Origin: Podarcis filfolensis
Lineage: Eukaryota
Direction: 5' to 3' (one strand)
Length of the DNA: 64,000 bases
Assembly (NCBI GenBank): GCA_964270895.1
Contig: OZ185438.1
Each line of letters begins with the position of its first letter. The first letter of the stretch is position 1. This document shows, in pieces, positions 4,734 to 53,857 of this stretch. The notes beneath the pieces are model-generated. The model did no database searches and was not told where the DNA came from. It saw only the letters and a list, made by a program, of their open reading frames with translations. Both the position numbers and the translations under genes were made by a program.

Positions 4734-5168
4734 TGTCAGGGAACTGCCATCAGGGCCGGAGGGAGAGAGCAAGCTCCAGAGGGACTCCAGAGAGCGCCCA
4801 GGGATGGGGAGAGGCAGCCCATCTTCTGGGGAAGAGAATCAGCGTAGCACCAGTGGAGAAGGGGGGCAGATGGGGGAAGCGGCGAGGCGGTTCCATGACT
4901 CCTTGCCGGGAACCAGTGGGGAGAGTAGGGGTCCTCCACTGCCCCGCACCCTCCTTGCGCAGAAGGCTTCCGCGCAGGGAGAGTAGGCGGAGACTAGGCG
5001 TCAAAGAGCTTCTTTGCTGGAAGAAGTTCAAGAAACGCCCACTGACGGATTCTGCCAGCGACTGAGACAGCCGCGGGTGAGTGGCTGTCCGGACAGAAAA
5101 GGTTCACTCAGGCAACCCAGCCCGGTGTGACGCCGGTTTACGCACGAGCAACCCCTAGAACCATTACA
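4734..5168 (+). mobile_element. Solo LTR (435 bp), probably Gypsy-like retrotransposon
   Basis: TGTCA...TTACA termini, perfect 5-bp TSD GGTAA (4729-4733 / 5169-5173); homologous to 22870-23303. Confidence 0.85.
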
Positions 5169-22792: not shown

Positions 22793-22869
22793 TAAAGAAG
22801 AGCTGAAGTAAGCATACCAGTACTACTCTGAGATAATGGGAGTTTGAAGATAGAAAAGTATTTAGTATG

Positions 22870-23303
22870 TGTAATGGCTTTAGGGGTTGCTTGTGCGTAA
22901 ATAGCCGCCGCTCTGGGCTAGGTTGGCTGGTTAAACCATTTCTCGCTGGGCAGCCATCCACTCCGTGGCTGTTCAGTCGCTGGCAGAATCCGTCAGTGGG
23001 CGTTTCTTAAACCTTTTCCAACATAAAAGTTGTTTGACGCCCAGTCTCCTCCTACTCTCCCTGCGCGGAAGTCTTCTGCGCAGGGAGGGCGTGGGTAGCG
23101 GAGGACCTGTGCTCTCCCCGCTGGTGTCCAGTGAAGAGTCCCGGAGCCTGCTCTCTGCTTCCCCCATTGGCCCCCCTCTATCCCTGGTGTAGCGCTGATT
23201 TTCTTCCCCAACAGGAGACTTGCCTCTCTCCCTGCTTGGCCCCTCTCCAGCATCGTTGTGGGGCCTCGCCTCCTCCTCTAGTTCCGATGGCAGTTCCCTG
23301 ACA
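22870..23303 (-). mobile_element. Solo LTR (434 bp), same family as 4734-5168
   Basis: Reverse strand reads TGTCAGGGAACTGCC...CCATTACA; perfect 5-bp TSD GTATG (22865-22869 / 23304-23308). Confidence 0.85.
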
Positions 23304-23345
23304 GTATGTATTGGAGTTTTACCAATCCGAATGGAGTGGGGGAAA

Positions 23346-24154
23346 GCATGGCTGTATCTGAGGTATTTTTAACATTGCGTTTGTTTCAGAACAGGATTCA
23401 TGGATATTTATTACTCAGAAAATTAGTAATCTCCTATGATGTGGGTTTAGCGTGAGGTGGAAATGATGCATTACTGTAATGCTAAGTTTTGGGGTAGACA
23501 TCCAATTTGGCCTTCAAGCTTTCTCTGAATGGGAACATTATTTATTTATTTTTAAAATAAAAACATCTTTGACATTTACAATCCAGAGTAGGTTGGGGTT
23601 TTTTCCCTTCATTCAAACCATTTTTTGGAAATACACTGAGAGCAGTATTTAATCTGCCCTGCTTTTTCTTCTCAGCAGATCATAATTACTGATAGAGACA
23701 TCTTGAAAGAGCTGTGTTCTTGAAATAAACTATCCCCTCAAGCTTCATAATGAGCATTATATAGAAATGACCTTTCCCTTGACAGTGTTCAGCGTATACA
23801 TTTTTACACTCTAATAGTATCTATGAACTTTATTATCTGAATTGGGTGGATCCATGAGTTGTTCTTGGTTTAAAACTACAGCACTTTGCTACTTTACTTT
23901 TTACTTCATTTTCACTTCTTATTCATTACAAAAATTGAGATAAATAAATAATGTTCCCATTCAGAGCAAGCTTGAAGGCCAAATTGGATGTCTATCCCAA
24001 AATGTGCCTCTGCACTTAGCATTACAGTAATGCATCATTTCCACCTCATGCTAAACCCACATCATAGGAAATTACTAATTTTCTGAGTAATAAATATCCA
24101 TGAATCCTGTTCTGAAACAAATGCAATGTTAAAATACCTCAGATACAGCCATGC
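23346..24154. repeat. Long inverted repeat: arms 23346-23549 and 23940-24154, 390-bp spacer
   Basis: Manual alignment: 5 substitutions, one 1-nt indel and one 12-nt indel over ~204 bp. Confidence 0.95.
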
Positions 24155-33948: not shown

Positions 33949-34052
33949 GCCAGTAGTGTTGATGTGGATGTTTTGGGCTGCCCAGAGATTAATTGGATGC
34001 CCGTGACAGCTATGTAAACTACAGTTCTGCAAAGCCTCGGAAACCCTGCAAA
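33949..34052 (+). other. RAI2: 5' UTR part of RAI2 exon 2
   Basis: Strong acceptor TCTCTCTTTTGCAG|G at 33948/33949; in-frame stops at 33954 and 33960 close the main ORF upstream. Confidence 0.65.
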
Positions 34053-35720
34053 ATGGAGGAACTATATAAGGACACGCAAAACCTGCCTATGGATGTTACC
34101 ACCTCGCCCTCGGCTATGGCAAACAACAAGCTAGAGAATGGAGTTGCCCAGCTGATAACGGCAGAAGCCTGGAATATCAATTCAGCAGACTTGATGAAGA
34201 AAGCACTTTCGCCGCTGGTGACTGTCCCCGCTCCATCAATATTGACACCGCCAGCAGAATCCCAAAGTGGGGTCGCTCTCAAGGTAGCTGCCACAGTGCT
34301 TCAGCCCATTTGCTTAGGAGACAGCCCCGTGGTTCTCCCAATACATCTCCAAGTAGCAGGAAGCACAGCCCCTCAGATTGCTCCGAATGGCAACACTCCC
34401 TACGTCATGACCACTCAAGGCCCAGTGCCACTGCCTGTCCTCTTAGAGCAACACGTGTTCCAGCATTTAAACTCCCCACTGGTGTTACCGCAGAGTTCTC
34501 CCTGTGCAGCCAACTCCATTCACAGCAACCTCTTTCAGGGCTCTTCTGCTCCGTTGGGACAGCCGCAACTGTTGGATCAGAAACCATCAAATACAGCTCA
34601 GGAGTCTGTCTTGCCTCCTGTGTTTCAGACACCAGGATTTGCTGCCGTTTTGCAGGATCTCTTTCCCACACAAGGCGCCTTAGGTCCTTCGCCCTATCAG
34701 CCGCCTCCAGACTGCTCTTCTGTCCCCCCACCACAGCCCTTCAGCTCCCCGTTATCTCCCCTGGTTCCGCCAGCCACACTCTTGGTACCGTACCCTGTGA
34801 TCGTTCCTCTGCCAGTCCCAGTTCCTATTCCTATCCCCATTCCCATCCCTGTGCCCCACGGTTCTGAGTCTAAGGCCAACATGGACTGCCCAAAACCAGC
34901 TGCTTCGTTCGTCTTGCATTCCTGCAAAGGCACCCAGACTCCCTTAGAGAAAGAAGAAACCAAACCATTCGATTTCATCCACCACAGAGAGCTTTCCCAG
35001 CTGAACCGGCACACTGTCATCAAGATGAGTAATGAGAATGAGGTCCTCGATCTGTCCATGAAAACAGCCCCTTTGCTTAAGGAAGGCGAGGACAATTCCC
35101 AGCTCTCACTGGAGGGCGGCGCTTTGGACCTCTCGATTACTTCCTGTCGGAAGGCTAGCAGCACCGAAGCAAGCAATAACGGCACCCGATCTGGATCCGC
35201 GATGGATGGCGCTTCTCATTCTGCAGCGGATAAGCTTTCCGGTGCGGTTTTGCCCTTTGCTCCTTCCAAACTGCACGAGACTCCGGCAAAGGTGGAAAGC
35301 AGAGTGATCAGTAGTGGCTCGTCTGAACTCCTGAGACAGCAGCCCAAATGGCTGGTGGACCAGACCAGTATAGCACCCTGTGAGCCGCCCACTGGCAATA
35401 ACATTGAGATTGTGAGCACGTCACAGACGGCCAAAGTGATCGTCTCTGTCAAAGATGCGGTGCCTACCATTTTCTGTGGCAAGATAAAGGGCCTCTCGGG
35501 GGTTTCGACGAAAAACTTTTCCTTCAAAAGGGACATGCCCCAGGACTCGGTGTTGCAGTGTTATGACGTGAAGAACCAGCCGGAAGCCCGGGATAATGCA
35601 GAGGCCCTTAGGAAACCTATAAAAAACAGGAGTGTGAAGTTAAAGAAAATGAGCTCGCAGGAAATACACATTCTCCCAATCAAAAAGCAGCGGCTCGCGG
35701 CCTTTTTCCCAAGAAAGTAA
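34053..35720 (+). CDS. RAI2: Retinoic acid-induced protein 2 (555 aa, single coding exon)
   Basis: NNKLENGVAQLITAEAWNINS, VPYPVIVPLPVPVPIPIP, two xLDLS CtBP-binding motifs and C-terminal IHILPIKKQRLAAFFPRK match recalled RAI2; ATG at 34053 in strong context (AAAATGG); the ORF-track start at 33993 is a TTG. Confidence 0.96.
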   Translation: MEELYKDTQNLPMDVTTSPSAMANNKLENGVAQLITAEAWNINSADLMKKALSPLVTVPAPSILTPPAESQSGVALKVAATVLQPICLGDSPVVLPIHLQVAGSTAPQIAPNGNTPYVMTTQGPVPLPVLLEQHVFQHLNSPLVLPQSSPCAANSIHSNLFQGSSAPLGQPQLLDQKPSNTAQESVLPPVFQTPGFAAVLQDLFPTQGALGPSPYQPPPDCSSVPPPQPFSSPLSPLVPPATLLVPYPVIVPLPVPVPIPIPIPIPVPHGSESKANMDCPKPAASFVLHSCKGTQTPLEKEETKPFDFIHHRELSQLNRHTVIKMSNENEVLDLSMKTAPLLKEGEDNSQLSLEGGALDLSITSCRKASSTEASNNGTRSGSAMDGASHSAADKLSGAVLPFAPSKLHETPAKVESRVISSGSSELLRQQPKWLVDQTSIAPCEPPTGNNIEIVSTSQTAKVIVSVKDAVPTIFCGKIKGLSGVSTKNFSFKRDMPQDSVLQCYDVKNQPEARDNAEALRKPIKNRSVKLKKMSSQEIHILPIKKQRLAAFFPRK

Positions 35721-36843: not shown

Positions 36844-37193
36844 GGGATGAGGGTGGCACTATGGTCTAAACCACAGAGCCTAGGGCTTGCTGATCAGAAG
36901 GTCGGCGGTTCAAATCCCCACGACGGGGTGAGTTCCTGTTGCTTGGTCCCGACCTCCTGCCCACCTAGCAGTTCGAAAGCACATCAAAGTGCAAGTAGAT
37001 AAATAGGTATCGCTCCGGCAGGAAGGTAAACGGCTTTTCCGTGTGCTGCTCTGGTTCGCCAGAAGCAGCTTAGTCATTCTGGTCACATGACCCGGAAGCT
37101 GTACGCTGGCTCCCTCGGCCAATAAAGCGAGATGAGCGTCGCAACCCCAGAGTCGGCCACGACTAGACCTAACGGTCAGGGGTCCCTTTACCT
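36844..37193 (+). mobile_element. Sauria SINE
   Basis: tRNA-like head (GGTTCAAATCC B box), Sauria core and TTTACCTTTA tail; imperfect TSD TTAACCATACA / TTAACTATACA. Confidence 0.92.
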
Positions 37194-37329
37194 TTAACTA
37201 TACAAAAGCTAGCTATACAAATATGGAAAAACATAAAATAAAAAGTCTCCTAGGTCTATGTGGGGACTAGACAGGGGGAGTGCAACTACATTGGTTATAT
37301 CGGACCTTCCAAGCAGCTTCAGTGCCTTT

Positions 37330-38873: not shown

Positions 38874-39239
38874 GGGGACACAGGTGGCACTGCGGTCTAA
38901 ACCACTGAGCCTCTTGGGCTTGCCAATCAGATTGGCGGTTCAAATCCCTGAGATGGGGTGAGCTCCCGTTGCTCGGTCCCTGCTCTTGCCAACCTAGCAG
39001 TTCAAAAGCACGCCAGAAGAGCAAGTAGATAAATAGGTACTGCTCCAGTGGGAAGGTAAACGGCGTTTCTGTGCGCTGCTCTGGTTTCACCAGAAACAGC
39101 TTAGTCATGCTGGCCACATGACCGGGGAAAACTGTCTGTGGACAAACGTCGGCTCCCTCGGTCTGTAAAGTGAGATGAGTGCTGCAACCCCAGAGTCGTC
39201 TGCGACTGGACTTAACTGTCAGGAGTCCTTTACCTTTAC
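38874..39239 (+). mobile_element. Sauria SINE, full length
   Basis: Complete head to tail; perfect 12-bp TSD ATGGAAATCTGA (38862-38873 / 39240-39251). Confidence 0.95.
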
Positions 39240-43710: not shown

Positions 43711-44263
43711 TGAATGGAAGGAGCCCTTCTATTTGTGAAGCCTAATTAGGTGGTCTAAACCACTGTGCCACTTGGGCTTGCCGATCAGAAGGTCAGTGGT
43801 TCGAATCCCCGCGACGGGGTGAGCTCCCGTTGCTCGGTCCCTGCTCCTGCCAACCTAGCAGTTCGAAAGCACACCAAAAAGTGCAAGTAGATAAATAGGT
43901 ACAGCTCCGGCGGGAAGGTAAACGGCGTTTCTGTGCACTGCTCTGGTTTTGGTGTTCCGTTGCACCAGAAGCAGTTTATGTCTTGCTGGCCACATGACCC
44001 GGAAAAACTGTGAACAAATGCCGACTCCCTCGGCCTGTAAAGCGAGATGAGCACTGCAACCCCAGTCGTCTACGACTGGACTTAACTGTCAGGGGTCCTT
44101 TACCTTTAATTAGGATACCAGTCCTTTTTACAGCAAAGTATTTGTAGACATAGCTTTTTTTTAAAGCTAGTCTCAAGGATATTGCCAAAATACTTCCGAA
44201 TGTAAGTGCACTATTTGTGTTAAATTATTTTATATAGCAGAAACCCTGCCAAGCAAAGAAAAT
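43711..44263 (+). repeat. Inverted copy of 46738-46941 (SCML2 intron end plus first 26 nt of an exon), interrupted by a Sauria SINE
   Basis: 44167-44263 vs revcomp 46738-46834: 84/97 identical, ungapped; 44107-44155 vs revcomp 46859-46907: 47/49; 43711-43750 aligns more weakly to 46901-46941. Confidence 0.92.
43751..44106 (+). mobile_element. Sauria SINE, slightly 5'-truncated
   Basis: Sauria SINE body and tail; 8-bp TSD TAATTAGG. Confidence 0.93.
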
Positions 44264-45033: not shown

Positions 45034-45360
45034 GGGACGCGGGTGGCACTGTGGGTTAAACCACAGAGCCTAAGACTTGCCGATCAGAAGGTTGGCGGTT
45101 CGAATCCTCGCGACGGGGTGAGCTCCCGTTGCTCAGTCCCTGCTCCTGCCAACCTAGCAGTTCGAAAGCACGTCAAAGTGCAAGTAGATAAATAGGTACC
45201 ACTCCAGCGGGAAGGTAAACGGCATTTCCGTGCGCTGCTCTGGTTCGCCAGAAGCGGCTTAGTCATGCTGGCTGTACGCCGGCTCCCTGGGCCAGTAAAG
45301 CGAGATGAGTGCCGCAACCCCAGAGTCGGCCACGACTGGACCTAATAGTCAGGGGTCCTT
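45034..45360 (+). mobile_element. Sauria SINE, young-looking, small internal deletion
   Basis: Intact GGGACGCGGGTGGC start; perfect 14-bp TSD TAGTACAATAGACT. Confidence 0.95.
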
Positions 45361-45407
45361 TAGTACAATAGACTAAATGTTGTAATATAAGCAAACAGCC
45401 TCCTTAC

Positions 45408-53461: not shown

Positions 53462-53857
53462 ACAAGGTAAAGGATCCCTAGACAGTTAGGTCCAGTCAAA
53501 GGCGACTATGGGGTTGTGGCACTCATCTCACTTTCAGGCCGAGGGAGCTGGTGTTTGTCCACAGACAGCTTTCTGGGTCATGTGGCCAGCATGACTAAAC
53601 CGCTTCTGGTGCAACAAGACACTGACGGAAACCAGAGTGCACTGACGGAAACCAGAGTGCACGGAAATGGTTTACCTTCCCGCCGCAGCGGTACCTATTG
53701 ATCTACTTGCACTGGTGTGCTTTTGAATGCTAGGTTGGCAGGAGCTGGAAGAGAGCAACGAGAGCTCACCCCGTTGCGGGGATTCGAAGCACCGACCTTC
53801 TGATCGGCAAGCCCAAGAGGCTCAGTGGTTTAGACCACAGCGCCACCCACGTCCTTT
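53462..53857 (-). mobile_element. Sauria SINE with internal 20-bp tandem duplication
   Basis: Reverse-complement Sauria SINE; TSD ATGTAAAA (53454-53461 / 53858-53865). Confidence 0.92.

Follow-up and report, generated by a model that had tools for sequence, protein, structure and literature searches.

The open reading frame in a solo LTR of Podarcis filfolensis is the C-terminal tail of the Pol/integrase polyprotein of a self-priming chromovirus

An Arg/Lys-rich open reading frame (ORF) in a solo long terminal repeat (LTR) of the lizard Podarcis filfolensis was identified as the C-terminal tail of the Pol/integrase polyprotein of a self-priming Ty3/Gypsy chromovirus, encoded within the LTR itself. 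The explanation of the whole that we find best, and reasonably probable, is an integrase tail that is read through the polypurine tract (PPT) into the 3' LTR and whose basic end would be an import or chromatin motif. The LTR lies in the window, that is, the whole stretch of 64,000 nucleotides that was analysed, in which a preliminary description made from the letters alone had drawn attention to the ORF. The 109 codons and stop that it had reported from the second base of the LTR are present, though on the minus strand of the window (23302 to 22973), the plus-strand frame over the same interval containing 4 stops. The features of this LTR and of a related copy in the window are as follows.

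22865..22869, no strand: target-site duplication (TSD) GTATG, left copy, flanking the family-B solo LTR
22870..23303, minus strand: solo LTR of family B, 434 bp, TG..CA, from a Tf1/sushi-type Ty3/Gypsy chromovirus; very young family
23304..23308, no strand: TSD GTATG, right copy, flanking the family-B solo LTR
22973..23302, minus strand: final 109 codons and stop of the Pol/integrase frame, LTR-encoded; expression from the solo copy not predicted
23147..23281, minus strand: codons 8-52, acidic/Gly/Ser disordered spacer, near neutral yet open and in frame; omega 0.63, pLDDT <50
23090..23146, minus strand: codons 53-71, Ser/Thr/Pro-rich, intermediate constraint; omega 0.41, 2dlnL 3.3
23003..23089, minus strand: codons 72-100, basic motif (Arg cluster, then LLCW, then Lys cluster), strong purifying selection; omega 0.087, 2dlnL 44
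22987..22997, minus strand: 11-nt self-primer, codons 102-106, complementary to the primer-binding site (PBS) of full-length elements; predicted transcription start (U3/R border)
22870..22972, minus strand: non-coding remainder of R/U5, without AATAAA/ATTAAA in families A-E
4734..5168, plus strand: second solo LTR, family A, 435 bp, TSD GGTAA, about 79% identical to the family-B LTR

The repeat at 22870-23303 was classed as a solo LTR because this ORF-bearing TG..CA repeat has GTATG on both flanks. Most relatives of the copy at 4734-5168 are 1 base shorter than it, and ahead of about codon 70 this copy is out of frame, so that the two window copies are comparable over the tail only. Recounting their last 38 codons gave the same result as the preliminary description: 10 codons differ, 8 synonymously and 2 non-synonymously (Q/E and R/K), and 10 of the 12 nucleotide changes are silent. 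Its statement that no ATG precedes codon 46 was likewise accurate, the first ATG being codon 46. Adjoining the solo LTR is a MITE-like element (23367-24134) whose inverted arms measure 121 nt (98%) and 63 nt (97%); copies related to it (92–95%) flank several other loci. The window also contains a 575-codon open frame at 33993-35720 (+) with a match to PF15279 (SOBP family, E 1e-18), which may resemble RAI2, a single-coding-exon gene, and five SINE-like repeat copies (36886-37195, 38916-39238, 43777-44108, 45076-45368 and 53476-53854), presumably of the Sauria SINE.

Two-LTR elements of 5.2–5.9 kb were located in the host genome through paired LTR matches. They encode a gag with a CCHC knuckle (found in the Gag of 7/7 elements checked), then protease, reverse transcriptase (RT), RNase H, integrase, SH3_Tf2-1 and a chromodomain; Pfam searches on the elements L036 and L032 gave the order gag, then PR-RT-RH-IN, and placed the chromodomain at the integrase's C-terminal end (PF00385, E 4e-10). 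After the chromodomain the pol frame continues for about 90 more codons and across the PPT; from the second base of the 3' LTR onwards it coincides with the frame of the ORF. No stop interrupts it across PPT and LTR before the reported one in L031 (422 aa) and L034/L037 (769 aa), where the rve, SH3_Tf2-1 and Chromo matches lie upstream in the same frame as the tail. Among the first 30 matches listed for family E, 20 are a single frame of 1373–1374 aa from the protease to the reported stop, and three UniRef Gypsy pol proteins of Podarcis muralis end in the same tail. In L036, the only two-LTR element of family B that was read from end to end, pol is interrupted by two in-frame stops; for family B itself, read-through therefore rests on the continuity of the frame at the junction and on the sister families. 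Because pol extends into the LTR there is no room for an env gene, and the element has none. On its layout and self-priming, rather than on an RT tree, the element is a Tf1/sushi-type Ty3/Gypsy chromovirus.

The in-frame junction with pol seen in these two-LTR copies confirms the earlier suggestion that the frame enters the 3' LTR from the internal region, and decides between the two identities that the preliminary description had weighed. It had likened the ORF to a separate accessory protein of the nef, sag or Rev/Rex/Tat kind and had named a C-terminal extension of pol/integrase as the alternative; the alternative is the answer, since the pol frame is continuous to the stop of the ORF. An accessory protein made from spliced or internally initiated RNA would agree with an Arg/Lys-rich ORF in U3 under purifying selection, but the ORF follows the SH3 domain and chromodomain in frame with pol and with no stop between, the element is no retrovirus, transcription is predicted to start where the ORF ends, and the LTR frame has no ATG that is conserved across families (Met46 is absent in family D, and Met15 occurs in E only). 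The accessory-protein reading is therefore already largely refuted, and we regard it as highly improbable.

The host genome (1.5 Gb) contained 2626 candidate matches to the family-B LTR, of which the best 40 are 99–100% identical, and 707 occurrences of a 28-mer from the end of the ORF. Perfect 5-bp TSDs flank 28/30 LTR copies retrieved. L016 and L017 were left out of the family-B counts as duplicates of the L015 locus: the three (G000:C19, 0.9–2.4 Mb) are a single solo-LTR insertion in triplicate with flanks 97–99% identical, which points to recent duplication. At L035:1416-2119, a family-B copy with a TSD measures 704 bp because of an internal deletion: the initial 34 bp of its LTR are fused to the acidic codons that follow the chromodomain, and a short purine repeat common to both sides lies at the join. 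Many family-E copies are 97–99% identical, and one young element of this family (L032:4550-9901; G000:C2, ~65.357–65.362 Mb) lies in reverse orientation where a family-C element encodes its integrase. Just outside the window, some 4 kb ahead of it, G000:C4:40356486-40357781 is occupied by a young element of family F whose pol frame is open over a long distance.

Selection on the LTR frame was assessed by comparing real copies of families A-E, whose RT is 85–93% identical to that of B where measured. The frame runs unbroken to one and the same stop in 28/28 B, 26/30 A, 12/15 C, 11/15 D and 50/50 E copies, the E copies having been picked by protein search, which biases them, and all sets being best query matches that lean towards young copies. 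Young copies with stops, which the preliminary description had expected not to be common, are thus absent from the B set, but 4/30 A, 3/15 C and 4/15 D copies are closed. For omega, one real copy per family was used over the 29 codons 72-100 with the null kappa taken from a grid, and the copies with stops or frameshifts (4 A, 3 C, 4 D) and 2 A copies whose LTR does not start with TG were excluded. In the codon model, codons 8-52 gave an omega of 0.63 that was not significant (2dlnL 2.4) and codons 53-71 gave 0.41 (2dlnL 3.3), whereas codons 72-100 gave 0.087 across five families (2dlnL 44 against omega=1) and 0.083 across four, without E (2dlnL 20). The value for codons 72-100 is lower than that of the chromodomain (0.158). 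The purifying selection that had been proposed from the two window copies is hence borne out at the protein level, dN/dS across the five families not being near 1 for these codons.

Shifted frames had a dN/dS of 1.1–2.7, except for the antisense frame that shares third positions (0.39). Synonymous sites were highly variable (pS 0.46), the estimate of 0.087 excluding the primer codons; Ser83, for example, is AGT in A-D and TCC in E, and Arg85 is written with four codons. Differences in length between families inside the frame preserve it (109, 100 and 115 codons), and a 1-nt indel in family C lies beyond the stop. Among young family-B copies there were 9 silent and 21 replacement differences (pN/pS 0.95), which is neutral, as expected after insertion. 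Judged from these substitutions, selection acts on the protein and only at its basic end, the spacer apparently needing no more than to remain open.

Two nucleotides after the 5' LTR, the elements carry a stretch complementary to LTR nt 307-317, that is, to codons 102-106. Pairing between primer and PBS is perfect over 10–11 nt in 7/8 elements and extends over 8 nt in L036, the two partners covary between families, and the region folds with the self-priming helix (z -2.9). In the Tf1 mechanism the RNA starts at the self-primer; pol here accordingly spans the whole of U3 and has its stop 22 nt inside R. Transcription driven by a solo LTR itself would then begin where the ORF ends, so that the ORF could not be expressed from it. 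A TATA-like TTTTAT is located about 30 nt before the primer in B and E. After the stop, AATAAA/ATTAAA was found in none of the LTRs of families A-E and once each in those of families F, F' and G. Contigs of four runs, which we guess to be RNA and which cannot show starts or strand, contained six joints, 0/6 with GT..AG ends.

The nucleotides of codons 102-106 are near-invariant at all positions because they serve to self-prime reverse transcription, the predicted promoter overlaps codons 72-100, and codons 8-52 are no different from omega=1, all of which would agree with a conservation due to DNA or RNA signals (promoter and self-primer) over a frame left open by passive read-through. With the primer excluded, however, omega is still 0.087 at a pS of 0.46, shifted frames have a dN/dS above 1, and TTTTAT is missing in A, C and D while LLCW is invariant. 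The preliminary description had foreseen such an RNA or DNA motif as a possible cause of the conservation; this is refuted for codons 72-100, stands for codons 102-106 and largely stands for the spacer. As an account of the ORF as a whole we give it very little credence.

More distant families of the host genome share the arrangement. In F, F' and G (RT 60–68% identical) the LTR encodes 224, 208 and 102 codons, respectively, the stop lies 18–33 nt after the start of the primer, and the end is an Arg-rich stretch with a Trp. Between F and F', the last 35 codons hold 13 synonymous and 8 non-synonymous differences, against 45 and 74 elsewhere. By these comparisons the arrangement dates far back within lizard chromoviruses. 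A profile of chromodomain and tail searched against 1.84 billion proteins gave 1374 matches, nearly all to the chromodomain alone; similar tails were present in an ENA protein ending ..KGLLCWKRR.., in P0126, which ends in an Arg cluster and LLNW, and in a Rhineura protein, whose end is basic. In P0026, a chimeric gene model, the first 88 residues alone belong to the element, and the P0013 tail was not found in the host genome with the query used. The basic motif had no Pfam family and no ESM Atlas cluster, and its single PDB match was one expected by chance (E 1.6). A likeness of the R..x8..W spacing to the CENP-C motif was dropped, there being no PDB match and the spacing failing in P0013.

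The last 38 residues have a net charge of +10 to +11 in all five families. An AlphaFold model, built on an alignment of only 4 sequences, predicted a short helix following the chromodomain and disorder over the rest of the tail. Given that the ORF is an integrase tail, codons 72-100 probably form a nuclear-import or chromatin-anchoring motif, and the selected basic end with its fixed LL.W core would most likely act in nuclear import or in a grip on chromatin. Arg-rich motifs bind RNA, and the main rival to this role is an integrase tail whose Arg-rich end binds the RNA of the element, for packaging or as a chaperone of the self-priming hairpin, and not chromatin or importin. The charge, Arg-richness and disorder of the end suit such binding; Gag, however, already has its CCHC knuckle in 7/7 elements, and the hydrophobic LL.W end, which does not vary, is more suggestive of a motif for binding protein, and we consider RNA binding unlikely.

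For an import or chromatin motif, the following course of events may be proposed. Genomic RNA would start at the self-primer (LTR nt 307), Pol would likely arise by a -1 frameshift out of gag, and translation would end in the 3' R. The mature integrase would keep a disordered tail of about 200 aa comprising the chromodomain, two helix-acidic-FxGF motifs, the acidic spacer and the basic motif. The last of these would bring or tether the integration complex to nucleosomes or DNA, like the LTR-encoded CR motif of plant CRM elements, and such a tether would matter because the chromodomain is without most of its methyl-lysine cage. Solo LTRs would merely inherit the selected sequence, since the predicted start site is the end of the ORF.

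Comparison of the chromodomain with HP1 structures (E 4e-6) aligned WEGE with WKGY of HP1, so that the Trp is kept and the third aromatic residue is absent; extension just beyond the alignment makes Asn the likely residue at the first cage position. The three-residue aromatic cage of a type I (H3K9me-reading) chromodomain was accordingly not found. With most of the cage lacking, the domain (L036:5233-5406) is like the group II chromodomains, which in passages of PMC3605345 are reported from plants only.

Between chromodomain and PPT (L036:5410-5610 and equivalents), the tail contains two copies of a unit composed of a hydrophobic helix, 8–9 acidic residues and FxGF. These motifs belong to the same tail but lie upstream of and outside the LTR, beyond the coordinates of the preliminary description. 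The layout is that of the TND-interacting motifs (TIMs), the FxGF form of which is described as necessary for binding LEDGF and HRP2 (passages of PMC9987994; 10.1101/624023, which gives a JIL-1 TIM). In 7/7 families whose internal tail was read in frame (B-G and F'), and likewise in P0013, FxGF follows the chromodomain, about 0.05 being expected per tail from composition, and motif 1 has an omega of 0.20. A helix was predicted with moderate confidence at model residues 64-68, right before motif 1, and none for motif 2. The acidic Ser/Thr linker has 8–9 residues in families B-E, P0007, P0010, P0013 and P0026, within the 8–16 of the TIM definition; in family E, L replaces the first F of motif 1, and F and F' keep FxGF without the acidic linker. 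The host genome has genes for both readers (LEDGF/PSIP1 and HRP2/HDGFL2). Complex prediction, run without alignments, of lizard PSIP1 289-378 with the first FxGF peptide (33 aa, L036) scored 0.32 against a mark of 0.34, with controls at 0.00–0.01; any pass in this prediction would also lean on solved TIM-TND structures. As a lead, the shape and conservation of the motifs suggest putative LEDGF/HRP2-binding TIM mimics in the tail. A broader proposal, which we hold possible but doubtful, is that the integrase tail is a modular targeting device in which tandem TIM mimics would engage the H3K36me3 readers LEDGF and HRP2, the tether of lentiviruses, by imitating a short motif of cellular proteins, alongside an LTR-encoded basic anchor for chromatin comparable to the plant CR motif, the F and F' elements, having lost the acidic linker, piling up at chromosome ends instead.

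Insertion patterns differ between families. Copies within the first 300 kb of a chromosome, where 0.4% are expected, numbered 0/40 for B, 0/40 for A, 5/145 for E and 16/84 for F, counts that exclude unplaced contigs (1 F, 5 E). F-like sequence was present in 6/14 terminal 4-kb stretches, most of them adjoining telomere repeats, and F elements are inserted within other F elements. The chromosome-end zone with F and F' (L189-L202, L203-L222) also holds a tandem repeat of about 500 bp. It is possible that F/F' is a telomere- or centromere-seeking vertebrate element, and retention fits these data as well. A centromere-type targeting role is not evident for family B because 0/40 of its copies fall in the first 300 kb. 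These counts bear on whether the basic motif might be a locus-specific targeting domain for centromeric or terminal chromatin, the vertebrate counterpart of the plant CR motif. It occupies the same position inside the 3' LTR (as described in passages of PMC3059260), and the sister family F is strongly enriched at chromosome starts and E mildly so; against this, families B and A have no copies there, and enrichment can arise from retention in regions of low recombination or from duplication. We consider locus-specific targeting improbable.

Full-text literature searches, a scope that leaves outside Butler et al. (2001), Repbase, Dfam and GyDB, returned no description of an LTR-encoded integrase tail or of FxGF motifs in vertebrate chromoviruses, and the terms searched gave no mention of such a tail in passages of PMC3601003 and PMC11011659; read-through of pol into the LTR may already be on record. 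The finding means that the LTR of a vertebrate retrotransposon doubles as coding sequence, all of U3 encoding the end of the integrase, and that thousands of solo LTRs carry an ORF with a signature of selection that could be mistaken for a gene. Insertion-site choice of vertebrate chromoviruses is poorly described in the literature searched, and the tail offers two short testable peptides (the basic motif and FxGF) together with several young families of differing insertion pattern in one genome.

Among retroviruses, the U3 coding of HIV nef and MMTV sag and the Arg-rich stretch of Rev, Rex and Tat are shared with the lizard ORF. The retroviral proteins are made separately, from the spliced RNAs of viruses that possess env, whereas the lizard ORF is the end of Pol. 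Lentiviral integrase binds through its folded core the same TND that TIMs bind, and a TIM-LEDGF link, if true, would mean that the tethering route of lentiviruses had also arisen independently here. With the TIMs of MLL1, JPO2, IWS1 and JIL-1 the lizard motifs share the short hydrophobic helix, the acidic Ser/Thr linker of 8–9 residues, FxGF and the occurrence of two in tandem; the TIMs in the review passages covered (PMC9987994) are all in cellular proteins, whereas those of the lizard lie in the integrase tail of a retrotransposon.

The elements share with the Tf1/sushi group (Tf1, Sushi-ichi and Amn-ichi/ni/san; V-clade of GyDB) the PR-RT-RH-IN order, the SH3 (GPY/F) domain and chromodomain, the 5-bp TSD and the self-priming PBS, self-priming being a mark of this group as described in passages of PMC6317226. 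To this plan the lizard elements add a selected tail of about 200 aa after the chromodomain, with 100–224 codons inside the LTR. The closest precedent is group A of the plant CRM elements, in which the polyprotein also extends into the 3' LTR and the LTR encodes the CR targeting motif (passages of PMC3059260); some Reina elements extend into the LTR as well (passages of PMC3605345). In CRM the CR motif replaces the chromodomain and priming is by tRNA-Met, whereas the lizard elements keep the chromodomain and self-prime, and CRM is centromeric whereas lizard family B is dispersed. The lizard tail may thus be viewed as an animal parallel to the plant CRM arrangement, a parallel of position rather than one drawn from sequence comparison.
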